A DNA stretch of 64,000 nucleotides from a virus (taxonomy: Duplodnaviria; Heunggongvirae; Uroviricota; Caudoviricetes): the IMG/VR virus record IMGVR_UViG_3300033153_011579. The stretch is one strand, 5' to 3'. The notes under the pieces were generated by a model. That model saw only the letters and a program-made list of their open reading frames with translations. It did no database searches and was not told the DNA's origin. Positions 17,174-61,946 of this stretch are shown piece by piece. A program made the translations under genes and the position numbers. Every line of letters begins with the position of its first letter. Position 1 is the first letter of the stretch.

Positions 17174-17174
17174 C

Positions 17175-26062: not shown

Positions 26063-26266
26063 TCAATCCTCCCTCGTATATTTGTCTAAGAGCGCCTGCT
26101 GCTCCTTGGTGAGTTCTTCTCCGATCTGGGTCAGCATGACGACGTGCCAGAACTCGCACATCTCCCGCTGGGCGTCGTCGCACATTATTTGGAACTCGTC
26201 GGTGATCGTCTCGCCTTCTTCGAGCGGCGGCGCTTTGATCTCGACGGTCCAGGTGATCTCAGTCAC
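26063..26266 (-). CDS. Hypothetical protein (67 aa)
   Basis: ORF track. Confidence 0.5.
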   Translation of the reverse strand: MTEITWTVEIKAPPLEEGETITDEFQIMCDDAQREMCEFWHVVMLTQIGEELTKEQQALLDKYTRED

Positions 26267-32839: not shown

Positions 32840-33718
32840 CTACCTCTTGGCCGGCGACACTACAGGAATCGAGCTCCCCTCGCCCGTGGCGATGACCTTG
32901 TCGCCGGGCCCGACGCGTTTATAAAGCGTCTTCTTGGCTTCGATCTCTCGCAGCGCAAGGTACTTGTCGGTGAGCGCGCCCCCCATGATCTTCACGTAGA
33001 CCGCCTCGGACTCCGCCTCGGCCGTCCTGACCGCCTTCATCTTCTCGGCGACCTTCAGCCGGTTGTCGGCCTGGAGCAGCTCCATCGCCTGCTTCGCCTT
33101 CTCCTCGTCGATCTCGATCTCTCGCCGGCGCTTCTTTTCGACGGCCTTGGTGATGACCTCCGGGTAGTCGAAGTTCGAGGTGACGACGCTCACGAGCTGC
33201 ATCGGCGTCCCCTTCAGCGAGGCGTGCAGCTGCTTGTGAATCTCTTTCTGGATCGCGTCCCGGTTTTCTCTGATCTGCGTCGTCGAGTATTTGCTCACGA
33301 TGCCACGCGCGATCGACCGAGCCTCGGGCTTCACGTACACGTTGTACAAGCTCTCGAACCCGAGTGCCGCCGCGTCGTACTCATCCCATCGCTCCATCTT
33401 CGACCCCTGGCGATTCAGGAGCTCCTTGATCGCAGATCCGTCTGCCGAGACCAGCCGCGTCCTCGTCACCAAATTGAACCTGAAGTTCAGGTCGTCCGAG
33501 CACAGGACGCTCATCTTCTCCTCGATGGCGTCCTCCTTCGTGTCGACCAGCTGCATCGAGTCGCGACCCCAGCACCCGTGGTGACCGGGTTGTAACACCT
33601 CGCCCGTCAGCCCTCCCGGGGTCTGTACCATCCCCACCCAGCCCGCAGGAACTACCTCGTTGCAACCGATGACCAAAAACGCCGCCAGGAACATTCCCAA
33701 AACACATGCTGATTTCAT
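32840..33718 (-). CDS. SPFH (band-7/prohibitin-like) domain lipoprotein
   Basis: MKSACVLGMFLAAFLVIGC lipobox; SPFH core followed by a coiled coil (EKKRRREIEIDEEKAKQAMELLQADNRLKVAEKMKAVRTAEAESEA). Confidence 0.75.
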   Translation of the reverse strand: MKSACVLGMFLAAFLVIGCNEVVPAGWVGMVQTPGGLTGEVLQPGHHGCWGRDSMQLVDTKEDAIEEKMSVLCSDDLNFRFNLVTRTRLVSADGSAIKELLNRQGSKMERWDEYDAAALGFESLYNVYVKPEARSIARGIVSKYSTTQIRENRDAIQKEIHKQLHASLKGTPMQLVSVVTSNFDYPEVITKAVEKKRRREIEIDEEKAKQAMELLQADNRLKVAEKMKAVRTAEAESEAVYVKIMGGALTDKYLALREIEAKKTLYKRVGPGDKVIATGEGSSIPVVSPAKR

Positions 33719-34077
33719 TGCCGAGCCTCTCTTTCTTCGGTGGTGAAGTCCACCTTGGAGCCACCGCGAACGCACGCGATGACTTGTTTGAGTTCTGCGA
33801 TCACAAACCGACCGAGACCGATCCTGTCGAGGTCGATGATGAGGGGCGGTGTCGTGTAGCCACGATCGTTGATCCTCACACGGAAGTTAACCCAGTCGCC
33901 GACCTTCACCCTGGTAAACCACCCGCGCACGGCGACCACCTCCCCGCGGAGGGTGTTTGTTTTCTCCGAGAATTTATCTCCGCAGTCGTCGGCGTGGATC
34001 CGCACGATCATCGACTTTCTCGGCATCGACGTGACGATGCCCTTGATGTCCTCCCTCTGAATTTCTCTATCGGCCAT
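33715..34077 (-). CDS. Hypothetical protein (120 aa), translationally coupled to the SPFH gene
   Basis: ATGA overlap with the SPFH start; GEVVAVRGWFTRVKVGDWVNFRV strand-rich segment. Confidence 0.5.
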   Translation of the reverse strand: MADREIQREDIKGIVTSMPRKSMIVRIHADDCGDKFSEKTNTLRGEVVAVRGWFTRVKVGDWVNFRVRINDRGYTTPPLIIDLDRIGLGRFVIAELKQVIACVRGGSKVDFTTEEREARQ

Positions 34078-36230: not shown

Positions 36231-36258
36231 TTGACAGGGTGGGAGAGATGGATACAGT
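36231..36258 (+). promoter_or_regulatory. Sigma-70-like promoter candidate for the rightward late block
   Basis: TTGACA (36231-36236) - 16 nt - TACAGT (36253-36258) in the AT-richer divergent gap. Confidence 0.4.
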
Positions 36259-37780: not shown

Positions 37781-38246
37781 TTTGGCATCGCCGCGTCAGG
37801 GTGCTCTGGCCGATCTTCTCTCCACTGGAGAGTTACTCCCGATGGTCCTGGTCGCCCTCGGCCTGGCGATCGTCATCACGTGCACCAGGGCCGGCTACCC
37901 GCTCCGCTTCCTGTGGTGCATGCTCTTCAACTTCCGCTTCACCAGGTGGCTCTGGAACCTCGTGCTCTGCCCTCACTGCTGCTCGTTCTGGACCGGCTTC
38001 GCCGTTGGGTATGCGGTCACGGGTGACTGGATAAAAACCATACAGATCGCCGTCACGGCGTGCGGCGTCATGTACGTGCTCCAGAAGACTTTCTCACGAG
38101 ACCGCATTGTCGCCGCCGACCGTGTCCACGGCGACAGGTGGGTCTTGGATGTTCGCGGCGTAGCGTTTGAACCCCCTGAGGATTTCGAAGAGATCCTCGG
38201 TATAAAAAACGGTTTGAAGGAGACTCCAGATGACGAAGATGGGTAA
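37773..38246 (+). CDS. Membrane protein, DUF1360-like (157 aa, TTG start)
   Basis: Hydrophobic helices; LCPHCCSFWTGFAVGY resembles the DUF1360 CxxC-W motif. Confidence 0.5.
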   Translation: MINLASPRQGALADLLSTGELLPMVLVALGLAIVITCTRAGYPLRFLWCMLFNFRFTRWLWNLVLCPHCCSFWTGFAVGYAVTGDWIKTIQIAVTACGVMYVLQKTFSRDRIVAADRVHGDRWVLDVRGVAFEPPEDFEEILGIKNGLKETPDDEDG

Positions 38247-40275
38247 ACAACTCGGGGAAGCACTCGAAAAGAGCTTCGACAGAACCATCAGGGATTTCAG
38301 AACCGAGAGCCGGTCCACCGGCACCACGGGCCTCGATGCGCTCGAGCAGCTCGGGAGGGAGTTCGAAACCGTCAGCGTCAACATACATAGGAAAAACGAG
38401 CACGGTAAGTACACCCTGTTCTCTCCACTCGAGGGCGTGGCCGTCGCCGACCTCCTGCAGCAGGGGTACGACGTCTTTTGCAAGAACGAGGGCGGCGAGG
38501 GCGACTACAAGGTGGAGGTTGTCATCCCGGCGAAGGAGCCGGGGAAGCCACCCGTCCGTCGCTGGGAGGGGCCGTTCATCGTGAGCGGCACGCCGCGGCT
38601 CGAGGTCTCCAAGACCGAGATGTCCAAGCAACAGAACAGTTTCGGATTTCCGTTCAACATGATGAGCGGCCTCCCCGCGAACACCGCCGCCGCCGGCAAC
38701 CAGGGAGGAGCTCCCTACGTCCGCGACCTGCTCCAGCAGATGAACAAGTCCTCCGAGAGCCAGAACAACATGGTGCAGCAGATGATGGGCCTCATGATGA
38801 TGAAGGACATGATGCCCGGCGCGGACCAGAAGAAGAACGGCGAGACCGACGCCAATAACCCGGCCGTGCTCGCGCTCCAGACCCAGGTCAGCGAGGTGAC
38901 CCGACGGCTCGACGACGAGCGCCGACGGTCGGAGGACGACCGCCGATCTCGAGATCAGGAAAAGCGTATCGAGGCCGCCGAGCGACGCGCCGAGGAGAAC
39001 CACCGAGAGGTACTCCGCCTGCTCGACAACAACAAGACCACCGAGACCATCGAGCTCATGAAGCTCCAGCGCGACGGCCAGGGCTCCAAGGACGACTCGT
39101 TCCTCAAGCTGATGGCCATGAACCGTGAGGATTCCAACCAGTCCCAGGCGCGGTTCGACGGGCTCATGATGAAGCTGTTCGACAAGCCAGACGGCGTCGA
39201 CCAGAGCTCGAAGGTCATGGGCATGATGATGGAGTCGTCCGTCGCCCAGCTCAACATGATGACCCAGATCGCCGCGAGCGGTCTCGCCGGAGGTTCCGAA
39301 AACCCGTGGATCGACCTCGTCCGCGAAGGGGTCGGCACGGTCAAGGAAGGTTTCAAGGGCGTCCTCGCCATGAAGTACGGCATCGACATGGACGGCGACG
39401 ACGAGGACGGCGAAGATGGCGAAGAGGCCCCGGCCCCCCTCACCCAGCACGTCCCGCCGGCGAAGATCGAAGCGCGGACCGACCCGGAGACCGGAGAGGC
39501 GGTACCGGAAGAAGCACAGACCACCGTCGACCAGCCGGCTCCAGAAGAAGACACCGAGGACGAAATCCCGCAGAGCGCGCTCGACGACGCCGACGAGCTC
39601 AAAAAATACATCCTCACCGACGACGAGCTCACGGGGCTCGCGCAAAACCGGCAGACGCAAAAAATCCTCAAGGCCGTCGAGGAGAAGGACTATCCGCAGG
39701 CCACCGCCCGGATCTTCGAGCGCGTCCGTGGCAAGTCGCCCGTCCACAAGCGCTGGCTCAAAGCCCCCGGCCCGCTCACCGCGCAGATCCTCACGCACTT
39801 CGGGCTCACGCACCACATGTTCGCGATGACCCAGAACCTGATCGACTTCATCGGCCATATGAACGGCGGTGGAAATCCGAACGACTGGTCCGAGAACTAC
39901 AAGCCGGTCAAGGAAAAGAAGGAGAGCAAGATGAAACCCGACAACCCCGCAGCCACCGAGCTGGGCGTGACCATGGGCGAGCGCAAGGAAGGCGAGGACT
40001 ACGACGCGTCGAAGGTTCCCGACGATCCCAAGCTGGCCGAGCTGGCCGAGCAGCAGCGAGCTCTGCGCGAAGAGAAGAACGTGCTCGACCAGATGGAGCA
40101 GATCGAAGAGAACATCGGGTTGCTCAAGGAAGGGAAGATCGACCCGCAGCGCGCGGCGTTCCTGCGCACGGAGAAGAAGCTCCCGGCGTCCGGAGAAGAG
40201 GACGAGGCGCTCAAGGAGATCGCAAAGCTGCGGCACGACATAAAGAAGCAGCAGGCCGAGGAGGGGAGGGCTTAA
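38230..40275 (+). CDS. Large Met-rich / coiled-coil / acidic protein (681 aa), possible scaffold-like virion assembly protein
   Basis: MVQQMMGLMMMKDMMPG, RRLDDERRRSEDDRRSRDQEKRIEAAERRAEE, DMDGDDEDGEDGEE; function unassigned. Confidence 0.6.
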   Translation: MTKMGKQLGEALEKSFDRTIRDFRTESRSTGTTGLDALEQLGREFETVSVNIHRKNEHGKYTLFSPLEGVAVADLLQQGYDVFCKNEGGEGDYKVEVVIPAKEPGKPPVRRWEGPFIVSGTPRLEVSKTEMSKQQNSFGFPFNMMSGLPANTAAAGNQGGAPYVRDLLQQMNKSSESQNNMVQQMMGLMMMKDMMPGADQKKNGETDANNPAVLALQTQVSEVTRRLDDERRRSEDDRRSRDQEKRIEAAERRAEENHREVLRLLDNNKTTETIELMKLQRDGQGSKDDSFLKLMAMNREDSNQSQARFDGLMMKLFDKPDGVDQSSKVMGMMMESSVAQLNMMTQIAASGLAGGSENPWIDLVREGVGTVKEGFKGVLAMKYGIDMDGDDEDGEDGEEAPAPLTQHVPPAKIEARTDPETGEAVPEEAQTTVDQPAPEEDTEDEIPQSALDDADELKKYILTDDELTGLAQNRQTQKILKAVEEKDYPQATARIFERVRGKSPVHKRWLKAPGPLTAQILTHFGLTHHMFAMTQNLIDFIGHMNGGGNPNDWSENYKPVKEKKESKMKPDNPAATELGVTMGERKEGEDYDASKVPDDPKLAELAEQQRALREEKNVLDQMEQIEENIGLLKEGKIDPQRAAFLRTEKKLPASGEEDEALKEIAKLRHDIKKQQAEEGRA

Positions 40276-41348: not shown

Positions 41349-41951
41349 ATGAACCCAGAGGTGCATCGTGGGGTCACGAGCATCAAGCAACGACTCGACC
41401 TGATAGCACAAAGGATCGATGTCAGCGTTCGTAGACCCCAGAAATCCTTAGACGGACGGCAGTTCATGCTCAAGGATTTCACTCACTTCATCGTTCGCGG
41501 TACCCCACAACACGGCCCAGCATCAGAAGAAGAGCCCATCAACGCGGTGTTCAGCTACGTGAAAAACAACATCGAGTACCGCCAGGATCCGACGGGCTAC
41601 GACTACTACATGGGTGCCGGGCGCATCATCAACTCCAAGGCCGGCGACTGCGACGACCTCACCATCATCATCTGCGCGATGCTCGACAGCATCGGCTACC
41701 GCACTGGAGCTCGGGTGATCTCTCCCGACGGGCACCAGTGGCACATCTACTCGCTCGCCGGGGTCGACCCTGCGTTCAACGGGGAGCCCTCGAGAGTCGT
41801 ACCGCTCGACGCTGCCTACGGTGACGAGCCCGGCTGGGAGCCGTCGAACAGATTTCGAAAGTACGAGCAGCAATGCACCTTCTTTAAGGGCAAGGTCGTT
41901 GGCTACAAGGTCGTCCGGGACGGCGGGTCCTGGTTCAATTTTTTCAGGTAG
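41349..41951 (+). CDS. Transglutaminase-like cysteine peptidase domain protein
   Basis: SKAGDCDDLTIIICAMLDSIGYRTGARVISPDGHQWHIYS...VPLDA (Cys-His-Asp arrangement). Confidence 0.7.
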   Translation: MNPEVHRGVTSIKQRLDLIAQRIDVSVRRPQKSLDGRQFMLKDFTHFIVRGTPQHGPASEEEPINAVFSYVKNNIEYRQDPTGYDYYMGAGRIINSKAGDCDDLTIIICAMLDSIGYRTGARVISPDGHQWHIYSLAGVDPAFNGEPSRVVPLDAAYGDEPGWEPSNRFRKYEQQCTFFKGKVVGYKVVRDGGSWFNFFR

Positions 41952-43398: not shown

Positions 43399-43471
43399 CC
43401 TTCGCCTGCTCTTTTAGCGGGCGGAACACACCGCAGCAGGCGAGTGATCCGCCCTGCGGAAGGAGGAGAAC

Positions 43472-43582
43472 ATGAAGAAGGGTACGTGCAAGCAGAACAA
43501 GAACAAACGCGGAGCCAAATGGGTCTGCCGGTCGAAGAAAACCGGCAGGGTCAAATTCTCCAAAACAAAGCTCTACAAGTGA
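43472..43582 (+). CDS. Very basic mini-protein (36 aa; below ORF-track cutoff)
   Basis: MKKGTCKQNKNKRGAKWVCRSKKTGRVKFSKTKLYK*; GGAGGAG 4 nt upstream. Confidence 0.45.
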   Translation: MKKGTCKQNKNKRGAKWVCRSKKTGRVKFSKTKLYK

Positions 43583-43590
43583 GCTCAACG

Positions 43591-44154
43591 ATGACGGGGT
43601 TTCCCGTCGAGGAGGACCAGAAGATGCGAAAGCGCAGCGATGACGCGGTCTCCGGCAGGGGACCACAGGACGACCAGTTCGTGGAAAAAAACGACGACAC
43701 CGACGTTGGTGCCTACACCATCGAGCCTCTGGCGGGAGTAATGGGCCTCGGGGCCAAAGACTTCCTTCCGCCCGCGGCCGGTGGCCTCGGCTACTTCGTC
43801 GCAACGTGGCTGGTGAACCGCTTCGGCGGGAACATCTCCGGCTACCTGACCCGGTTCGCTCCTCTCGTGGGCGGAGTGCTCGGGGCCTTGCTCAACGGCG
43901 TGGCCTTGCCCTTCGTCGCCAAGGGAAACGGGAAGAAGATGGTGGCGCAAGCCGCCGCCACTTCGCTGACCATGGGGATCATGTCCCAGATCCTCCGCGA
44001 GACCTCTGGCCTCGGAGCAGTCGTCATCGACCGGATCGCAGGAGCCGGTCCGATGGGTGCGCTCCCCGGCCCGACAGTCCACGGCGCAGGGACGATGCCC
44101 AGGCAGATCCGACAGACACTCGACAAGAGCGTCTATGGAAACTCGTGGGGCTAG
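43591..44154 (+). CDS. Gly-rich multi-pass membrane protein (187 aa)
   Basis: AAGGLGYFVATWLVNRFGG, FAPLVGGVLGALLNGVALPFVA, AAATSLTMGIMSQIL. Confidence 0.55.
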   Translation: MTGFPVEEDQKMRKRSDDAVSGRGPQDDQFVEKNDDTDVGAYTIEPLAGVMGLGAKDFLPPAAGGLGYFVATWLVNRFGGNISGYLTRFAPLVGGVLGALLNGVALPFVAKGNGKKMVAQAAATSLTMGIMSQILRETSGLGAVVIDRIAGAGPMGALPGPTVHGAGTMPRQIRQTLDKSVYGNSWG

Positions 44155-44218
44155 GCCCCGCAAAACCCGTTAGGTCGATCGCTGAAAAGCACGCCTGACA
44201 CAGAGGAGAAAACAAGCC

Positions 44219-44929
44219 ATGGCCGTCAACACAATCGAATTGCCTTCGGGCGAGATCTTCACCATCGCCGATTGGGGCGATTTCCCGCTGTACTCGCGCG
44301 CCCAGATCGCTCCCGGCAACGCGCAGGACGTGATTGTTTTCAATTACGTCGAAGCCCAGCCGATCCCGGGCGGCGGTGTCGCCGCGGCGCTGTCAACGCT
44401 GATTGACAGCAATCTCGAGCAGGACTCCGCACTGCCCATCGACGAGCAGATGATCGTCTTCTCCGTCCAGATCCGTTTCGACGAAGCGGACTCGGATGCA
44501 GCCGGCCTGGTGACGCAGGCGGACAGCGGTGCAGAGGGCATGATCAAGTGGCTCAACATCACGCACAACACGTATTTCGAGCTGACGGTGACGAGCCAGA
44601 AGCCTCGGGTACAGGGCGTGATCACCGAGTTCCCGATCGGTGGTGGGTTGTACTGGCAGCAGTCCCGTGACACCGGCGCGACCGTGGCCGGCTACACGCC
44701 GACGCCGATGCCGTACGACAACAACGTGGCCTACGAGGTCATCAACGGGTTCCCGACCGCCGAAGCGGCTCGCCGCCTCGCGCTGCCGGTCCACATCCCG
44801 ACGATGCAGACCTTCAAGGGCCGCTTCCGGTGGCCGCGTGGTGCGCTGCCCGCCGGCGGTATCAGCCCGGTGACGGACTTCGGTCTGACCGTGTTCCTCT
44901 ACGGACCGCGTCAGCGCCAGGTCGACTAG
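44219..44929 (+). CDS. Putative major structural (capsid-candidate) protein (236 aa)
   Basis: Strong SD-like CTGACACAGAGGAGAAAAC upstream; followed by a very stable hairpin; beta-strand-rich sequence. Confidence 0.5.
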   Translation: MAVNTIELPSGEIFTIADWGDFPLYSRAQIAPGNAQDVIVFNYVEAQPIPGGGVAAALSTLIDSNLEQDSALPIDEQMIVFSVQIRFDEADSDAAGLVTQADSGAEGMIKWLNITHNTYFELTVTSQKPRVQGVITEFPIGGGLYWQQSRDTGATVAGYTPTPMPYDNNVAYEVINGFPTAEAARRLALPVHIPTMQTFKGRFRWPRGALPAGGISPVTDFGLTVFLYGPRQRQVD

Positions 44930-44935
44930 CCGAGC

Positions 44936-44997
44936 GATCCTACCTATTCACCACTCCCCGAGCCGACCGGCTCGGGGAGTTCCGAGGTGGTAGGATC
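44936..44997 (+). terminator. Strong nested stem-loop after the capsid-candidate gene (attenuator/terminator-like)
   Basis: Inner CTCCCCGAGCCG-AC-CGGCTCGGGGAG (44954-44979); outer GATCCTACC / GGTAGGATC; only TT follows. Confidence 0.45.
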
Positions 44998-45008
44998 AGG
45001 AGGCTGGT

Positions 45009-45911
45009 ATGACGGAAAAATTCTTCTCCCCGCGCTGGTTGCACCAGTCCGTAGAGATCGGTGCCACCAGCCACCGGCCAGTTCCCTCGGCGTTCTTCGC
45101 GAACAACGAGGTTTGGAATTGGCATCTGGTGTATCTCGCGATCGTCGGCACTGCCGCGCTCGACGAGGCGGGGAACTACTCGCACGCGCTGGGCGGCGTG
45201 GCCAGGCGCTTGCGCCTGAATATCGGCATGTCGCAGATGGGCGACATCAACGTCGTGCCGTCCAACGGTCACGCGATGTTCGGTCCTAACGAGTCGTACC
45301 TCGTGCACTCGAACGACTTGAACATCGGCGCGGCCCTGCGGTTCGACCCGAAGTATCCTTACCAGCTTCCTCCCGACACGGGCATCGCCGCGCGCGTCAG
45401 GAACGACAACCTGACCTACAACATCGACAACCTCGGCTGTTTGTTCATGGGGTTCGACGAGCCGGCAGGGTTCGGCGAAGGCCCGCGCAACCCGGTCCAC
45501 ATCGGAGCTCGCGCGATCGAGGAGCTGCAGCCCGGCGGCGACTTCACGTTCGACGACGCCGATTTGTTCAACGACGGAGAGCACCCGGCGACCTTGACCG
45601 ACATGGTTTTACAAGGGTTCGCTCTCAATGAGCAGAATGTTTCGAACAACACATGGGACCAGGTCTCCTGGCTCCTGAACCCGAGCACCGGGCCCGAGTG
45701 GATGCCGAACGACCAGCCGATCCCGGTCGGCTGCCTCTGCCCGTTCAACCGCGGCATCCTCGACGCTAACGACGTCGGACCTCGAGCGTACGTCTTCCCG
45801 GAAGAGACGATCATGAAGCCGCGCCAGCGGATCTCGATCGAAGCGTTCAACTACTCGGCGTCGGAGCAGATCTTCGAAGTCTGCCTGTTCGGATATTTGG
45901 AGGTGGCATGA
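45009..45911 (+). CDS. Structural-block protein, beta-sandwich-like (300 aa)
   Basis: AGGAGG SD; C-terminal ETIMKPRQRISIEAFNYSASEQIFEVCLFGYLEV motif shared with neighbours. Confidence 0.6.
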   Translation: MTEKFFSPRWLHQSVEIGATSHRPVPSAFFANNEVWNWHLVYLAIVGTAALDEAGNYSHALGGVARRLRLNIGMSQMGDINVVPSNGHAMFGPNESYLVHSNDLNIGAALRFDPKYPYQLPPDTGIAARVRNDNLTYNIDNLGCLFMGFDEPAGFGEGPRNPVHIGARAIEELQPGGDFTFDDADLFNDGEHPATLTDMVLQGFALNEQNVSNNTWDQVSWLLNPSTGPEWMPNDQPIPVGCLCPFNRGILDANDVGPRAYVFPEETIMKPRQRISIEAFNYSASEQIFEVCLFGYLEVA

Positions 45912-46738
45912 TGAAGAACTACCTCCCGTTCGCAGTGCGCGAAATCCGGACGTCCGCAGGGGTCAACTGGGCCGGCGGCATCCCGCCGACGCAGAGCGCG
46001 GTCCAGGTCGTCTCGCTCGACGTGGGTTTTGGCGAGAAGGTGATCTTGCAAGACCTGAACGTCTACGCCTACACCGGCGGCGAGGCCGAGCCGTCGACCC
46101 AGCTGCTGATGCGCGTCGGCTACCTCGGCAAGGGATACCTCACCGAGCGCCGGCTGCCCGCCGGACTGTTCATCAACAAGTCCCGCCCGGCGGTACCGGT
46201 CTGGGAGTTCATCAGGCCGTACATCCTCTACCCGAACCAGCAGCTGCGAGCTCGGGTGGCGACGGCCCGGAACGTCTTCGGGAGCCAGGGCCTGATGTTC
46301 AGCGGCGTGAGGCTCAAGGACAACCGTCCTTGCATGCTGTACGACACGACGGAGAACGTGATCGCCGCCGGCGGTGGCGCGGGGTTCGTCGATACCAGCT
46401 TGCGCTGCCCGGGAGACTCCCCGGTCGCGTTGCACTCGGTGTCGATCGCCGACTGGGACTTCACGAAGACCGCCAACACCTCGGTGGTGCAGATCTGGAG
46501 CCCGCACGGTAGGGAGTGGTTCCAGGTGTCGCCGTTCGCCGGGCCGCCCCCGGCAGCCGACCAGAAGTGGATCGACCCCCCCGTCGACATGCTGTCGCTC
46601 GAGGAGTTCCGCGGCTGGAGCATCGGATCAGGCCAGACGTTCCTGGTCGAGTTCGAAAACACCGGACCCGACAACTTCAACGTCATGGTGACCTTACGGG
46701 GCTCCGTGGAGGTCGATGAGGAGGACCGTCATGGTTGA
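45908..46738 (+). CDS. Structural-block protein with internally duplicated strand motif (276 aa)
   Basis: ATGA coupling; YILYPNQQLRARVA...GLMFSGVRL and GSGQTFLVEFEN...VMVTLRGSVEV. Confidence 0.6.
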   Translation: MMKNYLPFAVREIRTSAGVNWAGGIPPTQSAVQVVSLDVGFGEKVILQDLNVYAYTGGEAEPSTQLLMRVGYLGKGYLTERRLPAGLFINKSRPAVPVWEFIRPYILYPNQQLRARVATARNVFGSQGLMFSGVRLKDNRPCMLYDTTENVIAAGGGAGFVDTSLRCPGDSPVALHSVSIADWDFTKTANTSVVQIWSPHGREWFQVSPFAGPPPAADQKWIDPPVDMLSLEEFRGWSIGSGQTFLVEFENTGPDNFNVMVTLRGSVEVDEEDRHG

Positions 46739-47660
46739 TCTCGCACAGAGTGAGATGTACAAGACCATCCCCCTCGGCGACGACGTCGCGCGGGAGTTCC
46801 CCTGGTGGCGCGAGGGTCAGACCACCTTCGCGACCGGCGTCGCGTACCGCGAGCAGCGGTTTGTGTTCGGGCCGAACAGCGCGCCCTTGCGCTCCGACCG
46901 CGAGATCCCGATCGACATCACCGAGATCCGGATGATCCTCGATACGACCACCGAGCGCGAGCAGGCGGGAGAGCAGAACACGACGGTTCAGATTTTTCAC
47001 TCGAAGTACGACATCATCAACAGATGGCAGCCGGTGCTGAGCGTCAACACCCTGTGTAACCGGGGGTTCGGTGGCGATACCGCGTCCGCCATGTTCAAGC
47101 TGCCCGCTCCGTACTTCCTGCAGCGCGGCCAGGCGTTCAAGATGGAGCTCGTCCCGCTGACGGCGACCATGGCGAACAGGACGATCGACGTCTGCCTACG
47201 AGGCTGGGACCCGTTCAACAAGTTCCCATGCGTCATGTCCAAGCAGATCGCCCTGGGCGCGGCCAACGCCAAGGTCGACCTCGTGTTCGACGAGAACCGT
47301 GACGCCGCCATGCGCAGCATGTGGATCCGGGACATCACGTTCGGGTTCAGCGAGGTGAACGCCGCGGCAGCGCCGAGGTCGATCACCGACCATATCCGCG
47401 TGCGGTTCCATCCGGGGATGGGCCCGAAGTGGACCGACGATATGACGATTGGCACGAGGTTGTCAGGCCTCGTGCACGACGACAGCTACGTCTCGGCGGT
47501 CGGAGCATATCGGCCGACCACGAGGTTCGTTCCCAAAGCTCCAATCGTCCTGCGGCCCCGAGAGGTGTTGACGATCAAGGTGAGGAACGAGGTGGCCATC
47601 GCCTCCGGGCCTCACACCTGGTACTGCTGGGTGATCGGTACGCAGAAGGGAAGGTACTAG
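46731..47660 (+). CDS. Structural-block protein with internally duplicated strand motif (309 aa)
   Basis: GGAGGA 5 nt before ATG 46731; YFLQRGQAFKMELVP...IDVCLRGW and IVLRPREVLTIKVRN... Confidence 0.6.
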   Translation: MVDLAQSEMYKTIPLGDDVAREFPWWREGQTTFATGVAYREQRFVFGPNSAPLRSDREIPIDITEIRMILDTTTEREQAGEQNTTVQIFHSKYDIINRWQPVLSVNTLCNRGFGGDTASAMFKLPAPYFLQRGQAFKMELVPLTATMANRTIDVCLRGWDPFNKFPCVMSKQIALGAANAKVDLVFDENRDAAMRSMWIRDITFGFSEVNAAAAPRSITDHIRVRFHPGMGPKWTDDMTIGTRLSGLVHDDSYVSAVGAYRPTTRFVPKAPIVLRPREVLTIKVRNEVAIASGPHTWYCWVIGTQKGRY

Positions 47661-47945
47661 ATGCTGAAGGGCATTCCGCTGCGCGCCATCGCCACCGTCA
47701 TCGCCGGGCCGTTCCCCTCCGCGACCACAGTCGAGGTGGTGTCGACCACGATGTACGACGACCACCGGGAGGGGTCGATGTGCTGGGTCAGCGACGAGGG
47801 GGCAGCCAACTGCCGTGTTGGGCACGGCTTCCCGCTCGAGCCGGGCACCAAGGTCGAGGTCGAGCTCGCCTCCGGCCAGGAGTTGTACGCGATCACGCAG
47901 TCGATCGCTCGGCTCGGAGTTTCGGTAAAGGGAACGCGATGGTGA
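47661..47945 (+). CDS. Small structural-block protein (94 aa)
   Basis: ORF track; TAGATG junction. Confidence 0.55.
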   Translation: MLKGIPLRAIATVIAGPFPSATTVEVVSTTMYDDHREGSMCWVSDEGAANCRVGHGFPLEPGTKVEVELASGQELYAITQSIARLGVSVKGTRW

Positions 47946-48112
47946 GAAAAAAGAAACTGTCGGCCGCGCAGAAGATGAAGCTCGCCATGCTCAACAAGGT
48001 GTTCGACATGGCGGACGCGTTCGTCAAGGGCGCGGGAGCTCCGCGCAAGAAGGCCACTAGTGGCCACCTCGCCGGCGGCGTGGCCCCAGCCCCGTGCGGG
48101 AAGTGCGACTGA
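47939..48112 (+). CDS. Small basic protein (57 aa)
   Basis: MVRKKKLSAAQKMKLAMLNKVFDMADAFVKGAGAPRKKATSGHLAGGVAPAPCGKCD*. Confidence 0.45.
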   Translation: MVRKKKLSAAQKMKLAMLNKVFDMADAFVKGAGAPRKKATSGHLAGGVAPAPCGKCD

Positions 48113-49047
48113 TGGAAGAAACGCCACAATTCCTCGACTGGAACAAGCCGATCCCGGTGGGGGTCTGGCGCGTGGCGATGTTCGTGTTCAACGACCGGGT
48201 GATGCAGGGCTATGGCGACGAGTATGTCGCCAACTACATCACGTACTGGGGGGCGAGGGTCGGTCTCGACGTCTCGAAAAACCATATCGTCAAGGGCGCG
48301 TACAAGGTTCAACTCGGCGCGGACCCAGCAACCCCGTGGTTCGTGTACGTGAGGAACACCGTGAAGGGCCTCACGTCGGTGGAAGTCTTCAAGACGACGA
48401 AGATGCTGGTGTGGTTCTTCGAGCAAGCCACCGAGGGCTGGATGGCCAACTACCTCGAGACGGCCCAGGGGCATCTCGGTGCGGGCATCAGGCAAGCCAA
48501 CCCACCGCAGTGGGCGACCTCCGATTCGTTTCTGCTCGCCGAGCGCTGGTACGGCGTGGCCACCATCTGGAAAGACGTCGCGCCCAACCCGAACTTGATA
48601 GAGGACAAGCTCCAAAAAATGGGGCTCGACATCTGGAGCGGTCCGGGGGGCGTCGTCTACAAGGACGACAATCCACGGGTCATGATCCTGTCGCTCTACA
48701 CGGGCGATAAGCCCCGGCGGGTGGGGGACATCCAAAAGGCGATTGGTGCCAAGGCTCTCGTCGTCGACCTCAACCATTTTGAAAAGAACTACACGAAGGA
48801 CAAGTCGGACAAGATCTACGAGGCGTCCGGGGCGATGCTCGAGACGATTGGCGATATGGCGGTTGGGATCTCCGAAGGTCTCGAGAACGCCACCGACCTC
48901 GTACCCACGGTGTTCGACATCCTCGGCTGGATCGCGAAGTGGGGACCGTTCATCGCGGTCGGCGCGGTCGCGCTCTACTTCGGCCCTCGGGTGCTGACGG
49001 CAGCCAAGAAGAGCCGAGGCGAGTGGAAGAAGGCGAGGGCGGCATGA
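48112..49047 (+). CDS. Hypothetical protein with C-terminal TM + basic tail (311 aa)
   Basis: TGATG coupling; ends WGPFIAVGAVALYFGPRVLTAAKKSRGEWKKARAA*. Confidence 0.6.
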   Translation: MEETPQFLDWNKPIPVGVWRVAMFVFNDRVMQGYGDEYVANYITYWGARVGLDVSKNHIVKGAYKVQLGADPATPWFVYVRNTVKGLTSVEVFKTTKMLVWFFEQATEGWMANYLETAQGHLGAGIRQANPPQWATSDSFLLAERWYGVATIWKDVAPNPNLIEDKLQKMGLDIWSGPGGVVYKDDNPRVMILSLYTGDKPRRVGDIQKAIGAKALVVDLNHFEKNYTKDKSDKIYEASGAMLETIGDMAVGISEGLENATDLVPTVFDILGWIAKWGPFIAVGAVALYFGPRVLTAAKKSRGEWKKARAA

Positions 49048-49364
49048 CGAGCAAGCAAAAGATCATCGCGGGAGTCGCCGCGGGAGCCGCCGCCGCCCTG
49101 ATCACCGGTCTCGTCATCTGGCGCTCCCGGAAGAGGCTCGCGCTCGCCGCTCTTAAATACGAAGTCGATCCTTTATATAAGGCCCCCGCCGGCCTCAAGA
49201 CGCTGAAGCTCAGGAGCGTGCCGAAAGCCGCGGTGGTGGCCGTTAGAAAAATACACGGCAAGTTCAAGCTGCACCAGGCGTTCAGGGACACCGACGCCAT
49301 GTACTTGGTAGAAATCCACGAGGGGTTCGACCCGCTCGTGTTTCGAGTGAGGAGAAAGACATGA
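49044..49364 (+). CDS. N-terminally anchored small protein (106 aa)
   Basis: MTSKQKIIAGVAAGAAAALITGLVIWRSRKR. Confidence 0.55.
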   Translation: MTSKQKIIAGVAAGAAAALITGLVIWRSRKRLALAALKYEVDPLYKAPAGLKTLKLRSVPKAAVVAVRKIHGKFKLHQAFRDTDAMYLVEIHEGFDPLVFRVRRKT

Positions 49365-50419
49365 GAGGCAATCCCTACGATTGGATCAACCAGACTCGCG
49401 AGCACAAGGTGTTCGGAACTCGGCACTACCCGCTGATCGCCGGGCTCGCTGGGAAGTCCAACGGCTACCCGGCGTTCGCCATGCAGGTCCAGAGCCTGCC
49501 TGGTCTGCAGCGCAACCAGTACATCCGCGAGTGGCGGCAGTGGTTCGGGCGGCACGGCAAGAGCTGGGAGAAGATGGGCTGCCTCAAGGAAAACCGTCTC
49601 GGCCAGTACACCGACCGCTACAGGTGGACCGAGTGGAAGCCGGGCCTCGGTGCCTTCGGGTCGTTCGATACGAGCGTCGGGATGGGCTGGACCGCGATGG
49701 GGAACCCCGGCGCGAACTTCATCCCCAAGACGAACGTCATCCCGATCCCGGGGTACCCCGGCTGGGTACGCCAGATCGGCATGCTGAAGTACGACAAGGT
49801 CGGCGACGCGTGGCCCTGGTGTCTCGTGTACGCCAAGACCGACGGCTCGCAGTACGTCTGGTACTACAAGTACTCGGCGTCTCAGCCTCCGTTCCCCGGA
49901 GTCCCGCAGCCGACCGGCGGTGGCGACGACATCGGCACCGCGATCCCGAGCTCGACGAAGGCCGCGGTCACCGCGCTCCAGAAGGCGCTCAACCTCGCCG
50001 ACGCCAGGGACTCGCACAACAGGAAGCTGAACGAGGACGGCAACATCGGGCCCGACACGTGCTACGCGGCGTACCAGTTCAAGTCGGAGATGGGGCTCGG
50101 TACCGGAGCTGGGCTGCCCGCGGAGTTCTGGCTCTACCTCGGCCTGCCCGAGTCGTACGTCAAGTACAAGAACATCTGCTCGGCCTACTCGAGTGGAACG
50201 GAACCGAAAAAAACGACCAAACAACCGGGGCCGCTACCGGAGGAAGAGACTCCCGACCCGACGGTCAAGGCGGGCGACGCACCGCTCTCGATCTCGAAGG
50301 CGGGCCTCGGTGGCAAGAAGATGCTCCTGCTCGGCGGGGCCCTCCTGTTCGGGGGGCTCGTCGTGCTCGGTCGTAAGAAGAAGAAGCGCGGAAAACGCTC
50401 CAAGAAGAGGAGAAAATAA
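49361..50419 (+). CDS. Peptidoglycan-binding-domain protein with C-terminal TM and poly-basic tail (352 aa)
   Basis: TKAAVTALQKALNL...LNEDGNIGPDTCYAAYQFKSEMGL (PG_binding_1-like); ends LLLGGALLFGGLVVLGRKKKKRGKRSKKRRK*. Confidence 0.6.
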   Translation: MRGNPYDWINQTREHKVFGTRHYPLIAGLAGKSNGYPAFAMQVQSLPGLQRNQYIREWRQWFGRHGKSWEKMGCLKENRLGQYTDRYRWTEWKPGLGAFGSFDTSVGMGWTAMGNPGANFIPKTNVIPIPGYPGWVRQIGMLKYDKVGDAWPWCLVYAKTDGSQYVWYYKYSASQPPFPGVPQPTGGGDDIGTAIPSSTKAAVTALQKALNLADARDSHNRKLNEDGNIGPDTCYAAYQFKSEMGLGTGAGLPAEFWLYLGLPESYVKYKNICSAYSSGTEPKKTTKQPGPLPEEETPDPTVKAGDAPLSISKAGLGGKKMLLLGGALLFGGLVVLGRKKKKRGKRSKKRRK

Positions 50420-50988
50420 TGCCGTCCAAGAAGAGCAAGAAGAAGCGCGGGAAGAAAAAAGGGAGTCCGCTCCCACTCGTGATCGCCGCGGCGGCCATCG
50501 GTCTCGCCCTCTTCTTCGTGAGCAAGAAGGGGTCCGCCGGAGTGCCCAAGGACATCCCCAAGGGGAAGGGTCCCGGGAAGGCACCTCCCGCAGGAGCGCC
50601 GGCCAGCGCGCGCCCAGCTCCCGAGCTCACCGCGGCTCCGGACCCCGTGCCGACGGGAGAAGCGATCGACGACGCGCCGGCACCGACCAGTTCCGGCGAC
50701 ACCGGGCCGAGCGACCCGCTGAAGGCGGCCGGCTGGAAATGGGGCTTCATGGGATCTGTCGACCCCGACGAGGCATGGTCCGTCGGCGAGGTCATCAGCC
50801 CTTCACAGCTGCCGTTTGGTGCGGACAACCTGATCCAGGTGAGCCCGCTCGACACGGTCGAGGTGGCCTACTACCTCGCGTCGCAGGAGATGCTGACGCC
50901 TGGCTACTACGTGGTCGGGCAGATCAACTCGGAGGGCTTCTCCTTCGAGCCGCCCTTCTGGGGCATCATCCACGTCTGGCAGGAGTAG
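50419..50988 (+). CDS. N-terminally anchored protein with poly-basic head (189 aa)
   Basis: MPSKKSKKKRGKKKGSPLPLVIAAAAIGLALFFVSKKG. Confidence 0.6.
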   Translation: MPSKKSKKKRGKKKGSPLPLVIAAAAIGLALFFVSKKGSAGVPKDIPKGKGPGKAPPAGAPASARPAPELTAAPDPVPTGEAIDDAPAPTSSGDTGPSDPLKAAGWKWGFMGSVDPDEAWSVGEVISPSQLPFGADNLIQVSPLDTVEVAYYLASQEMLTPGYYVVGQINSEGFSFEPPFWGIIHVWQE

Positions 50989-50994
50989 GGAAAG

Positions 50995-51648
50995 ATGCCG
51001 TCGCCGCACAGCTATTACAGCTACCTGAAGATCTACAACGGGTCTGTGGGAGAATCGCCGCGCAAGGGGGCTTTTTACATCCCCAAGCATGGCGAGGCAC
51101 TCACGAGGATCGCCAAGCAGGCGTACGGGTTCGTGACCAGTACGCTCGCCGGCGTCCAGATGATCAACAGATCAGCATGGAATCGCAATGCGGCGAAGCA
51201 GGGTGCGTTCAAGTATCGCGTGACGTCGACTTCTTGCAAGTCGAAGATGGCCAACCCGGACAACGCGCTCACTACCCAGGGCTACAACAAGGGGGCCTGG
51301 CTCGCGCTGTGCCCGCCTTACCCGCTGTTCTGGATCCCGGCGAAGGCGGGCCAGATGCCGGAAGACCTCGCGCCTCCGGACGCCCCCCCCGGTCCCCCCG
51401 GAGCGACCTTCAAGGCACCGCCGAAGTCGCGTGGTGGAAGAGTGACGACGAAGAAGAGAGCCGGGGTCAAGACCACCAGGCAATCGCCCGGTCCGGGGAC
51501 GCAGTCGCCCTACTACCAGGGCCAGGGGACGTCGGGCTCGAGGAAGACGGCTCTCGCCGGCGTCGGGTCGCCGTGGATGCTGCTCGCCCTCGCGTTGCTC
51601 GCAGCCGGAGGATACGTATGGTACAGGCGGCGGAACAAGAAGAAGTAG
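50995..51648 (+). CDS. LysM-like protein with C-terminal TM + basic tail (217 aa)
   Basis: FYIPKHGEALTRIAKQAYG (weak LysM-like); ends PWMLLALALLAAGGYVWYRRRNKKK*. Confidence 0.5.
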   Translation: MPSPHSYYSYLKIYNGSVGESPRKGAFYIPKHGEALTRIAKQAYGFVTSTLAGVQMINRSAWNRNAAKQGAFKYRVTSTSCKSKMANPDNALTTQGYNKGAWLALCPPYPLFWIPAKAGQMPEDLAPPDAPPGPPGATFKAPPKSRGGRVTTKKRAGVKTTRQSPGPGTQSPYYQGQGTSGSRKTALAGVGSPWMLLALALLAAGGYVWYRRRNKKK

Positions 51649-51753: not shown

Positions 51754-53571
51754 ATGGGTAACGAAAAGGGGCAGGAGCCCAAAACCCCTTCGAAGAGGAA
51801 GATGAACGACCGGAGGGTGACGCAGGCCCAGGTCGGCGTCGAGCAGCCGACCGACCGCGACGAGGGTTGGGACGTCTCGAAATTCCGGCAGATCATCTTT
51901 TCGATGCACCCGGTCGACCCGGACATCGACGACGTGGGTGCCGTCGGCTGGATCGCGTACGTCAAGGTCTGGCGCTTCAAGCTCGCCAACCGCTGGGGTA
52001 CCGGCAGCTCGGGAGGACAGTGGTACGCCGAGGACGAGCTCATCATCTCGATGGACGGCGATGTCGCGAACGGCGGCCCGATGGAGTACCAGCTGCCGAC
52101 GTGGAACGCCGAGAAGATGTTCTTCCAAGTGGTGCTCTCCGAGGGCGGTCCCGATACGTGGCAAGCCGCGCAGACCATCTCCGGGCTCGTCCCGCAGTCG
52201 TGCGAGTGCGAAGCGGACGTCGGCAGTATCGGTGGCGGCGGTGGGTCCGGTGGAATCGTCGTCTCGAACCTGTTCGATCTGATGGCCCACAACGACTACA
52301 CGTACAGCTCGCTTCGTGGCGATTTCGTCGCCACCAGGATTGCCGCGAACTCCATCCTGGTCAGCGGGCTCGACTTCGCGGTCGAAGAGCGGCAGATCCT
52401 GGCGATCGGCCTCAAGCGCTCGGGGACAACGTCCAGAACGCGCATGTGGTATCGCGACGACACCCTGCGTGTCGACTACACGCCAGGAACCTCGCTCATC
52501 GTGCACGCTGGCTTCACCAGCGACGCCCTGGACGAGGTGATCGTCTTCCTCGAGGGACCGTCCAAGGTGGACGACCCCACGAACCGAGCTCGACGCAACA
52601 AGACCGTCAACCCCGACCCGAAGCATGTCGCGACCGACGGGATTTTTCTCGACATCACGAAAGCCGAGCAGGCCGACGACGATTATTTCCCGTTCATGAT
52701 GAACCAGGACGGCTACCACTGGCTGTCGACGATGATCACCCTGACCGAGGACACCGTCGTGACGCTCGAGGCGACAAACGACCTCGCAGCGGACGGTGCC
52801 GAGGAATGGTACGACGTCACCGAGGAGGTGCTCGGCGTCGCCTCGGTCACCACGGCGAACGACGACCAGGCCTTCCCACCGCAGTGCTGGGTCGGCTGGC
52901 GACGGATGCGCTGGGTGGTCGGTGAGACCGGCTCTGGCGGTACCTGCAAGCTCTACATGCTGAGATCGGCCTATGGCAACCACTGGGTGCCCGTCGCCCG
53001 TGAGGGCCTCCCAGCGCTCCATGGCGGCCTCCCGGTGATGGGCGAAGCTCGAGCTGTCCAGGCCCCGGCCATCGCCGCGCTGTCCGCTGGGAAGTTCGTC
53101 ACGAACCTCTTCAAGGAGCTCGTCGGAGCAGCCTTCGACTGGGCCGTCGGAGCAGACCGCGGAGAAGAGGTCGACCCCGTCGACACGCGGGACTACACGA
53201 ACGTCATGGCCGAAGTCACCGGCCAAGGGGATGGTGATTTTTACTACTACCTCGACATGGCCCACTTCACAAAAGTGGGCATCCAGATCGAGAACGTCGA
53301 TGGAATAGCCGGCGACAACACCTACACGATCCATGGCTCGGAGCAGGACGACGGTACTGCACCGAACGCCGTTATCTACCAGGACATCACGCAGTTCGGG
53401 TGTGACAACATGAGAGCAGCCAACGCCGCGAACTACACGGCGGACGTCCTGTTGCAACTGAACGCCGCCGGGCTCTCGTACAAGTGGATCATGGTTCATG
53501 TCGAGCGCGCCAATGATGGCGCAAACACCGACGGCGAGTGGACCATCCTCGCCCGTCCGCTCTACCACTAG
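51754..53571 (+). CDS. Large multi-module beta-rich structural protein (605 aa; fibre/spike candidate)
   Basis: GGGGGSGG linker; repeated beta-sandwich-like modules ending ...EWTILARPLYH. Confidence 0.6.
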   Translation: MGNEKGQEPKTPSKRKMNDRRVTQAQVGVEQPTDRDEGWDVSKFRQIIFSMHPVDPDIDDVGAVGWIAYVKVWRFKLANRWGTGSSGGQWYAEDELIISMDGDVANGGPMEYQLPTWNAEKMFFQVVLSEGGPDTWQAAQTISGLVPQSCECEADVGSIGGGGGSGGIVVSNLFDLMAHNDYTYSSLRGDFVATRIAANSILVSGLDFAVEERQILAIGLKRSGTTSRTRMWYRDDTLRVDYTPGTSLIVHAGFTSDALDEVIVFLEGPSKVDDPTNRARRNKTVNPDPKHVATDGIFLDITKAEQADDDYFPFMMNQDGYHWLSTMITLTEDTVVTLEATNDLAADGAEEWYDVTEEVLGVASVTTANDDQAFPPQCWVGWRRMRWVVGETGSGGTCKLYMLRSAYGNHWVPVAREGLPALHGGLPVMGEARAVQAPAIAALSAGKFVTNLFKELVGAAFDWAVGADRGEEVDPVDTRDYTNVMAEVTGQGDGDFYYYLDMAHFTKVGIQIENVDGIAGDNTYTIHGSEQDDGTAPNAVIYQDITQFGCDNMRAANAANYTADVLLQLNAAGLSYKWIMVHVERANDGANTDGEWTILARPLYH

Positions 53572-58663: not shown

Positions 58664-59158
58664 GTGGGAGACAGCGACACACTGATCGAGATCGCCAAGA
58701 GCCTGGGAGAGGTCAATGGCTCGATGGCCGGCGTCCATCGCGAGATGAAAGGTGTTCGTGGAGAGGTTCGAGAGCTGCGGGACGAGGTCAAGGAGATGCC
58801 CGACCAGTGGAGGGCGGAAGCTGCGGACATCGTCGAAAACTGCAGAGAGCGACGGGACGAGCTCGCCGAGGCGAAAGAGCGTGGGGAGTCCACCGCGGTC
58901 ACAAACCTCGCCAAGGAACAGGCAAGATCTCGGAGGCCGTCCACGCCTCCCCGGAAGCGCGACAGTTGGATCGACAGCGTCGTCAAGACGGCGATGAAGC
59001 CGGTCATCACTACGCTGGTGGTGGTCTGCATGGCCGCCGGCGCGGGGTTCGCCGTGTCCCACTGTAGCAACGGCAAAACGGTCGAGCCGGCTGATCTGAA
59101 GGCGCTCGAGGATAATTTGCTCGAGCGGTTCAAGAAGGTGAACGGAGGCGAGCGATGA
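58664..59158 (+). CDS. Coiled-coil membrane protein (164 aa, GTG start)
   Basis: AGGAGG SD; TM KPVITTLVVVCMAAGAGFAV. Confidence 0.55.
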   Translation: MGDSDTLIEIAKSLGEVNGSMAGVHREMKGVRGEVRELRDEVKEMPDQWRAEAADIVENCRERRDELAEAKERGESTAVTNLAKEQARSRRPSTPPRKRDSWIDSVVKTAMKPVITTLVVVCMAAGAGFAVSHCSNGKTVEPADLKALEDNLLERFKKVNGGER

Positions 59159-59682
59159 GTAACCTCGACCCAGCTCTGTGCAAGTGGGAGCTGGTCAAGA
59201 AGTGGGACTATCAAGACGTCACCATGGAGCGGGCCTTTGCAGAAGGCGGCGGCCTGGTGGTCGGTGGCAAGCTCCGGGGCCACGCTGCTTCGGGATTCGT
59301 CCTGAGCGACCTCGGCGTCCCCTCTGAGCTGATCGACGAGATGGCCGATAAGTTCGGGAAGACGTGGGAGGTCCTCCTGTTCGTGACGTCTCCCCATCCG
59401 GTGGGTGCCGGGAACTTCACGCTTGCCGAAGAGGTGTATGCCCTGTGGGCCTACAAGGCGACCTGGCCGCCGCCGATGCACTCGTCGCTGGACTACGTCC
59501 CCGACGCGGTGCTGAGGAACGCGCGGCTGTTCAAGCTGCAGTGCCCGACGGAGGCCGCGCCCTGGCTCCAGAAGAAGAAAGAGCATTCGATGAAGCCCCG
59601 GAGCTCTATCTGGGTTCCCGTAATTGGCGGTTTTTGCCTGGTGGGAACCTGGTTGCTCGCGCGAAAAAGGAAGAAGCGGTGA
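59155..59682 (+). CDS. Protein with C-terminal TM + basic tail (175 aa)
   Basis: ends IWVPVIGGFCLVGTWLLARKRKKR*. Confidence 0.55.
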   Translation: MSNLDPALCKWELVKKWDYQDVTMERAFAEGGGLVVGGKLRGHAASGFVLSDLGVPSELIDEMADKFGKTWEVLLFVTSPHPVGAGNFTLAEEVYALWAYKATWPPPMHSSLDYVPDAVLRNARLFKLQCPTEAAPWLQKKKEHSMKPRSSIWVPVIGGFCLVGTWLLARKRKKR

Positions 59683-61014: not shown

Positions 61015-61027
61015 TGGGCTATTTTAA
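61006..61027 (+). terminator. Perfect 14-bp palindrome GCCCACTAGTGGGC + TATTTTAA (terminator-like)
   Basis: Contains the TAG stop of 59713..61014 at 61012-61014; T-rich tail follows. Confidence 0.35.
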
Positions 61028-61304: not shown

Positions 61305-61946
61305 ATGCCCAAGAGTCCAGGACCAGCGACGTTGTTCATGCTGCTGACGGGTGGAGCTTTGCTCCTGGCCGGCGCGGTCCGCGCATTCTCCGGTGAGCAA
61401 AAAAGCCCACTAGTGGGCCCGAGGTATGTGGTGGCGGTGGGCGACTCTCTGACGGCGAACGGGTCGTATTGTCGGACGCTCGAGCGGATGCTTCCTGTCG
61501 GGTCGAGGGTGGACTGCGTCGGGTACGTTGGCGAGGGGGCGCAGGCGATCTCCACGAAGGTAGGGAAGGCGATCCTCGCCGGAGCAGACGACGTGATCGT
61601 GTTGGCCGGCGTGAACGACCTGGCGTCGGGTCGCGGGGTGCAGGGGACGGTCTCCGGGCTCGACAAGATTTACCAGAAGGGGAGGGCATCGGGCGCGCGG
61701 GTGATCGCAGTCCACCTGACTCCGTGGGCGGGGCATTCGAAAGGGTCGCAGCTACAGACCGAGACGTGGAAGGTGAACGCGTGGATGGCGAAATACCCAT
61801 CGGTCGAGATGGTGGTCGAGACGCAGGAGCTCGGTGATGCCGGCGTCCTCTACCCGGAGTACGGAGCTGGCGACGGGTTACATCTGAGCGAGGCGGGCCA
61901 GGACAAGCTGGCGGAGATCATCTTTAGCCAGGTGTACGGAGGATAG
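61305..61946 (+). CDS. SGNH/GDSL hydrolase with N-terminal signal-anchor
   Basis: VVAVGDSLTANG (block I), VIVLAGVNDL (block III), GDGLHLSEAG (DxxH block V). Confidence 0.75.
   Translation: MPKSPGPATLFMLLTGGALLLAGAVRAFSGEQKSPLVGPRYVVAVGDSLTANGSYCRTLERMLPVGSRVDCVGYVGEGAQAISTKVGKAILAGADDVIVLAGVNDLASGRGVQGTVSGLDKIYQKGRASGARVIAVHLTPWAGHSKGSQLQTETWKVNAWMAKYPSVEMVVETQELGDAGVLYPEYGAGDGLHLSEAGQDKLAEIIFSQVYGG
61404..61417. repeat. Second perfect copy of the palindrome GCCCACTAGTGGGC (inside the SGNH gene)
   Basis: Identical 14-mer 398 bp after the first copy. Confidence 0.8.

Follow-up and report, generated by a model that had tools for sequence, protein, structure and literature searches.

A conserved five-gene block encoding predicted jelly-roll proteins, a candidate shell module of an undescribed bacterial virus lineage

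What do neighbouring genes encode when their products match no known protein family and are nevertheless kept together, in the same order, from one viral genome to the next? This question is raised by a 64,000-nucleotide stretch of viral DNA (IMG/VR record IMGVR_UViG_3300033153_011579; the whole of this stretch is referred to below as the window), the plus strand of which carries five adjacent genes named here A to E. Gene A (44219-44929) encodes a predicted single jelly-roll protein of 236 amino acids, gene B (45009-45911) a predicted tandem jelly-roll protein of 300 amino acids, genes C (45908-46738) and D (46731-47660) its paralogues of 276 and 309 amino acids, with an internal duplication detectable in D, and gene E (47661-47945) a small conserved protein of 94 amino acids. 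Judging from gene comparison and structure models, the chances appear about even that A-E encode the shell of bacterial viruses belonging to an undescribed lineage, membrane-containing and probably tailless, which is known from its genes and predicted folds. Several features together favour this assignment: the folds, an operon logic that is conserved, the strongly conserved sequence of A, numerous small membrane proteins encoded close together, and the lack of tailed-phage hallmarks.

The five genes form one block, to which E belongs. As read from the sequence, the start codon of C overlaps the stop codon of B as ATGA, the last 8 nt of C double as the first 8 nt of D, whose start has GAGGAGG upstream of it, and the stop codon of D abuts the start codon of E (TAGATG). 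A and B are set apart by a 79-nt gap, which is occupied by a hairpin. An earlier examination of the window, made from the letters alone (the sequence-only reading), had placed the four larger open reading frames (ORFs) at these coordinates, and both coordinates and junctions are confirmed; it had also described all four genes as translationally coupled, which holds for B/C and C/D but not for A/B, in view of the hairpin-filled gap. Third-position GC reaches 0.85-0.90 in the plus-strand frames of A-D, and the minus-strand ORFs that overlap the block (e.g., 44940-45584 and 45851-46507) are therefore considered spurious. A longer version of D, starting at 46716, was also rejected, since all homologues of D begin with MVD..., which places its start at 46731.

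The same architecture is found in related loci, of which 36 (numbered L001 onwards) were fetched. B has eight close homologues and, in an exhaustive profile search, 60 cluster representatives at 50% identity; for A, 25 homologues were obtained by single-sequence search and 48 by profile search. All these homologues are metagenomic proteins, and in SRR26786797, one of the samples carrying the family, one protein recurs on 26 contigs. The order A-B-C-D-E is identical at every locus long enough to display it (about 20 metagenomic relatives), E following D in every relative of sufficient length. Among the eight loci for which called genes are available, B and C overlap by 1 or 4 nt in all eight, the C/D junction is an overlap of 4-8 nt or a direct abutment in seven, and D and E lie within 3 nt of each other in five of five; a single 28-nt case is the exception among these three junctions. 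Between A and B, the gap is 72-120 nt long at these eight loci, and 55-136 nt over all 19 loci in which this spacer was compared. With one set of 16 genomes used for every protein, A has a mean pairwise identity of 52%, followed by B (37%), C (34%), E (30%) and D (28%), making A the most conserved protein of the block. The only match among GTDB representative genomes is a contig of 4,365 bp (L017; CAYZAI010000396.1) carrying A, B, C and part of D, which has been binned to the metagenome-assembled genome of an uncultured member of the Myxococcales. Being too short to count as host evidence, this contig offers a weak hint about the host.

The gap between A and B is filled by a nested hairpin (44936-44997, plus strand), a candidate attenuator or 3' stabiliser. 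Its outer stem of 9 bp (44936-44944 paired with 44989-44997) surrounds an inner GC stem of 12 bp (44953-44964 paired with 44969-44980) closed by a GACC loop. This element, already noticed in the sequence-only reading and now confirmed by coordinates and folding, is the strongest inverted repeat across the whole window; its folding energy of -52.6 kcal/mol (z = -7.1) was equalled by none of 200 shuffles. An uninterrupted stem of 10-16 bp is present in the A-B spacer of 18 of the 19 loci, usually with an outer stem around it, and shuffle z-scores range from -3.2 to -8.2 in 17 of those 18 (-1.9 in L020). It is as a structure that the hairpin is kept: sequences are unrelated between clades, and within the close clade compensatory changes occur at 8 of 18 consensus pairs. 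A TTTTT run comes directly after the corresponding stem of L028 and L034, forming a canonical intrinsic terminator there. In the window, the 12-bp GC-rich stem is present with the tail TTCC (UUCC in the transcript), and a terminator consensus scan does not call it; no Rfam match was obtained anywhere in the window. We infer that the hairpin has a putative function as a leaky terminator and/or 3' stabiliser, raising A relative to B-E. A has a Shine-Dalgarno sequence of its own (GAGGAG, 44203-44208, plus strand, 10 nt before the ATG), as does B (AGGAGG, 44998-45003, plus strand, 5 nt before the ATG and directly 3' of the outer stem). The first gene had been credited with the strongest expression signals, as expected for a major capsid protein. 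With regard to ribosome binding, this view has to be abandoned, as the site of B is at least as good as the one that precedes A. The idea that no gene of the block is expressed more highly than A nevertheless gains support from the hairpin, conserved in 18 of 19 relatives, and from the rank of A as the best conserved protein; this strengthens the case for an abundant A, whose role as a capsid protein is putative.

Structure models were made for A and B as monomers. The model of A is a single jelly roll of viral-capsid type, and its best fold neighbour in the PDB is VP4, a capsid protein of the membrane-containing virus SPV1, with a sequence identity of 11%; HCIV-1 VP7, P23-77 VP17, the major capsid protein (MCP) of STIV and PRD1 P3 are also among its fold matches. 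In the model of B, two consecutive eight-stranded jelly rolls are found in one polypeptide, barrel 1 spanning approximately residues 5-150 and barrel 2 residues 161-299, with double jelly-roll (DJR) capsid proteins and GH172 as best fold matches. B is thus modeled as a tandem jelly-roll protein, whose inter-barrel geometry is seen in the monomer model only and does not imply canonical DJR geometry; C and D are predicted to share the fold by homology to B. In B, C and D, the barrels could be placed next to each other, an arrangement known from DJR capsomers, or be stacked as base and tower in the manner of the large sphaerolipovirus capsid proteins. Jelly rolls had been proposed from sequence patterns for all four proteins, and this prediction is supported by the models for A and B and, since C and D are homologous to B, extended to these two as well; neither model is HK97-like or tail-fibre/baseplate-like.

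Jelly rolls also occur in cellular proteins, and A-D could be carbohydrate-active or carbohydrate-binding proteins of the GH172/DUF2961 type, encoded on a large mobile element and foreign to any virion. We regard this interpretation as very improbable: there is no sequence match to PF11175 or to any Pfam family, A-D have neither a signal peptide nor a transmembrane segment, the coupled five-gene block with its attenuator is fixed inside a module of small membrane proteins, and the genomes are dense in ORFans, consistently 70-82 kb in size and endowed with a D5-type primase-helicase.

The relationship between the proteins of the block was examined by all-against-all HHalign comparison of A-D, using alignments of 17-26 sequences. 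B and D align over essentially their full length (97.2%, E = 3.6e-11, 267 columns), B and C over 206 columns (96.2%, E = 2e-9) and C and D over 198 columns (73%, E = 3e-5). When hidden Markov models (HMMs) were searched against all window ORFs, the paralogues were the next-best matches and nothing else was retrieved, the B HMM matching C at 4.3e-5; 12 other module proteins, profiled against A-E, revealed no further paralogue. At the profile level, B, C and D are mutual paralogues. A shows no significant profile similarity to any of them (below 4% in every HHalign comparison, halves included), so that three of the four proteins are related. Comparison of split halves gave 94.8% between the N- and C-terminal halves of D (E = 5e-8, 99 columns), 72.6% between the N-terminal half of C and the C-terminal half of D, 37.8% between the C-terminal half of B and the N-terminal half of C, and 7.8% between the two halves of B (112 columns). 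According to these profile scores, D thus contains a demonstrable internal duplication, of which B and C show no more than a hint. The sequence-only reading had attributed a recurrent strand motif to all four proteins, with two copies in C and in D. For B, C and D, the motif stands beyond chance, its segments falling on one another in the profile alignments, but the terminal motif of A does not belong with them (profile similarity below 2%). Likewise, the proposed duplication is borne out by the halves of D, but the number of proteins concerned was too low, as B also carries two copies (PYQLPPDTGIAARVRN...LGCLFMGF and ETIMKPRQRISIEAFN...VCLFGYLEV). At the profile level, these comparisons support an origin of B, C and D in which one barrel was duplicated and fused and the resulting gene was then duplicated twice.

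Such paralogy also suits a capsid module in which the roles are reversed, B, C and D building a heterotrimeric pseudo-hexagonal capsomer as the major lattice unit and A serving as a penton, cementing or peripheral protein. B, C and D would each bring two barrels, and their best matches, DJR capsid proteins and GH172, form trimers (PMC8812541). In addition, an obligate heterotrimer would agree with strict 1:1:1 coupling and with the three paralogues being strictly kept by every lineage, and the pentons of DJR viruses are single jelly rolls, like A. This distribution of roles seems unlikely, and a shell in which A is the abundant subunit is preferred.

The surroundings of the block are in keeping with a virion containing a membrane. 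The block is part of a plus-strand module beginning near 36.4 kb, for which a promoter scan found a sigma-70-like promoter (TTGACA-16-TACAGT, 36231-36258, plus strand). Between 36.4 and 64 kb, 13 of 36 ORFs encode one transmembrane helix, several of these proteins being tail-anchored with poly-basic C-termini. Immediately upstream of A lies the gene of a conserved membrane protein of 236 amino acids (43444-44154, plus strand; transmembrane segment at residues 141-159), 20 homologues of which occupy the same position in relatives. Immediately downstream of the block, five single-pass membrane proteins are encoded in a run (48094-51648, plus strand), three of them with a C-terminal transmembrane segment followed by a basic tail. 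Single-pass membrane proteins with a C-terminal helix and a poly-basic tail (...KKKKRGKRSKKRRK, ...RRRNKKK) are encoded at 48094-51648, 59155-59682 and 62381-62725; where a virion membrane faces inwards, their tails could be in contact with DNA.

Hallmark genes were searched for in all window ORFs of about 200 amino acids or more and in many smaller ones, against Pfam and partly against PHROGs. None of the scanned ORFs matched an HK97 capsid, portal, terminase or tail family, divergent members of which can escape sequence methods; apart from two ORFans of 605 and 681 amino acids, no window ORF exceeds 450 amino acids. These results bear on another explanation, in which A-D are virion proteins other than the shell (spikes, receptor-binding or decoration proteins) of a virus that is possibly tailed and whose capsid gene lies in the approximately 18 kb not covered by the window. 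This explanation appears improbable. Besides the lack of any match to HK97, portal, terminase or tail families in 64 kb, the mean identity of 52% for A is unlike that of typical host-recognition proteins, numerous virion-type membrane proteins are unusual for tailed phages, and capsid proteins dominate the top fold matches.

Several observations nonetheless weigh against assigning A-E to a shell. The putative capsid role is derived from genes and predicted folds, and for C and D the fold itself comes from homology, models having been made of A and B only. It is a single barrel of B that superposes on DJR capsid proteins (107-129 residues), no global match for B is returned by Foldseek (TM about 0.2), and the Z score of B against DJR proteins is below the value of more than 10 typical of true DJR proteins (PMC8812541). 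Searches of Pfam, PHROGs, NCBIfam and PDB profiles gave no profile-level sequence link to known DJR capsid families. The roughly 18 kb of the source genome beyond the 64-kb window could hold HK97, portal and terminase genes, and the hairpin of the window has no U-run, so that its role as a terminator is putative. Finally, no FtsK/HerA-type (A32-like) ATPase for packaging was identified, no ORF with a Walker-A motif being present in the 64 kb even with relaxed patterns. A GCGKT string in the ORF at 15381-16487 was discarded, as its context is not that of a P-loop. Nor does a packaging ATPase gene lie immediately upstream of A, where the neighbour (43444-44154) is the membrane protein described above. 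Within 10 kb of A in 12 relatives, no Walker-A ORF was found except a D5-type primase-helicase, which adjoins the module in L012, and three P-loop-like strings in L016, L021 and L027. SPV1, FLiP and the Odin group likewise do without a packaging ATPase (PMC8812541, PMC5894146), a precedent which does not reach the present genome size.

If A-E do encode the shell, the following assembly can be envisioned. A, a single jelly-roll shell protein translated from its own ribosome-binding site, would be the abundant subunit, and the hairpin after its gene, acting as a partial terminator and/or a 3' mRNA stabiliser, would keep it in excess over the downstream products. The overlapping stop and start codons from B through C and D to E would couple translation and yield about equal amounts of these proteins; equal B, C and D would suit subunits of one hetero-oligomeric capsomer or vertex complex. 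Together with A, they would tile an icosahedral shell around a lipid vesicle populated by the single-pass, basic-tailed membrane proteins encoded on either side of the block. Genomes of this lineage would measure about 70-82 kb, with an internal membrane probably present and a tail probably absent.

The relatives give some indication of these genomes. Their longest contigs are 70, 74, 74.6, 81 and 82 kb. The position of the block, about 45 kb into the window as against about 12.7 kb into the related L001 (JGI 3300041085, contig Ga0452209_000538, 81,271 bp), suggests that the assemblies are circular permutations of a genome that is circular or has terminal redundancy. A bacterial host is pointed to by an SLT transglycosylase, which also indicates that this host has murein, by genes led by Shine-Dalgarno sequences and by the type of promoter.

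Other genes of the module could contribute to the particle. A very charged, Met-rich protein of 681 amino acids (38230-40275, plus strand) has no transmembrane segment and no homologue of known function, and is kept at the same module position as proteins of 619-671 amino acids in L012, L014 and L016. Scaffolding, a tape-measure function or the condensation of DNA are conceivable roles for it. Downstream of the block, a beta-rich protein of 605 amino acids (51754-53571, plus strand) contains the Gly-rich linker GGGGGSGG and is conserved as proteins of 537-608 amino acids in L001, L002 and L012. Profile comparison revealed no similarity between this protein and A-E, and it could serve at a vertex or as a spike. 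PDB sequence profile searches with these two proteins produced chance-level matches or none. A protein with a transglutaminase core, cysteine-protease-like, is encoded in the structural module (41349-41951, plus strand) and conserved in L014 (6013-6597); it is possibly a maturation protease or a cross-linking enzyme. The module also encodes two LamG proteins, a GP88-family protein and a GDSL lipase. A perfect 14-bp palindrome, GCCCACTAGTGGGC, occurs in two identical copies 399 bp apart, one where the GP88-family gene ends and the second inside the GDSL-lipase gene (61006-61019 and 61405-61418).

Elsewhere in the window, nearly all ORFs are ORFans to Pfam and PHROGs. The minus strand encodes a response-regulator receiver protein (17597-18598), a Band 7/SPFH protein (32840-33775), the SLT transglycosylase (20609-21295) and an Lcl_C-domain protein (16484-17191), and the plus strand a weakly tyrosine-integrase-like protein (82-969). 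A truncated protein of 369 amino acids resembling adenylosuccinate synthetase (26259-27368, minus strand) retains the GDEGKG motif and scores far under the NCBIfam cut-offs (110 vs. 396 bits for PurA and 39 vs. 300 bits for PurZ); it is accordingly neither a PurZ nor a standard PurA.

A more far-reaching proposal can be made, which we advance as a tentative one: that these viruses represent a new high-rank bacterial lineage of 70-82 kb, membrane-containing, with one single-barrel protein and three tandem-barrel paralogues that arose by a jelly-roll duplication and fusion independent of the classical DJR proteins, and without a P-loop packaging ATPase. Whether DJR capsid proteins derive from fused single-barrel capsid genes or from cellular DJR proteins is an open question (PMC8812541). 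One single-barrel gene next to three tandem-barrel paralogues, with the halves of D still alike, bears on this question, and such a lineage, if real, would be a living parallel or intermediate for the disputed transition from single to double jelly roll. It would also stretch several-fold the genome range of bacterial and archaeal viruses with vertical jelly-roll capsids, of which the known ones have small genomes, and its conserved attenuator and coupled cistrons would offer a clear and testable example of stoichiometry control in a capsid operon. The lineage is apparently invisible to current virus-finding resources (IMG/VR, INPHARED, PHROGs and Pfam). A-E have no match in Pfam, PHROGs or NCBIfam; profiles of A-D gave chance-level matches or none against PDB sequences; A, B, C and D gave no tblastn match among the 50,697 phage records of INPHARED; and no relative was found when IMG/VR was scanned with B and with the A profile.

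Modules of jelly-roll capsid genes are known, but this composition is without a described counterpart in the resources and literature searched, in which no account of this virus group was found. What sets it apart is the combination of a single-barrel gene, an attenuator and three coupled tandem-barrel paralogues, with the halves of D alike, in genomes of 70-82 kb and with no P-loop ATPase in view. In gene logic, the nearest analogy is the pair of small and large capsid proteins of the Helvetiavirae (VP16/VP17 of P23-77; VP7/VP4 of HCIV-1, SH1 and HHIV-2). These viruses have one large protein, whereas three large paralogues are found here, with both domains being jelly rolls homologous to each other. 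Sphaerolipovirus genomes reach up to roughly 31 kb. Compared with the Helvetiavirae, the genome is here about three to five times larger and devoid of an adjacent packaging ATPase; the host is bacterial and possibly non-thermophilic, and no sequence similarity is detectable. For A, the nearest fold neighbourhood is that of the Portogloboviridae (SPV1 VP4/VP10), through SPV1 VP4 at 11% identity. SPV1, which infects archaea and whose genome measures roughly 20 kb, is without tandem-barrel proteins of the B/C/D type.

For B, it is the DJR MCPs of the Bamfordvirae (PRD1 P3, PM2 P2, STIV B345, FLiP, PBCV-1 Vp54), on which one B barrel superposes over 107-129 residues with a Z score below the mark of more than 10 (PMC8812541). 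These proteins are each the product of one gene, in contrast to three paralogues here, with halves of D that can be aligned in sequence and no A32/FtsK-type ATPase. The cellular DJR family DUF2961/GH172 (7v1v, 4kq7) differs in that no PF11175 match is found here and the context is virus-like, not that of a sugar-utilisation locus. Capsid paralogues at special lattice positions are known from PBCV-1 (MCPv1-v3), a eukaryotic giant virus in which the genes are dispersed, whereas they form a coupled tandem array here. The structural module of the Caudoviricetes is built on an HK97-fold capsid, a portal and a large terminase, none of which was matched among the scanned window ORFs. Genome sizes of DJR viruses, both metagenomic and known prokaryotic ones, are about 7-18 kb (PMC5894146), and compared with the known bacterial jelly-roll viruses, the genomes carrying the A-E block are several times larger.

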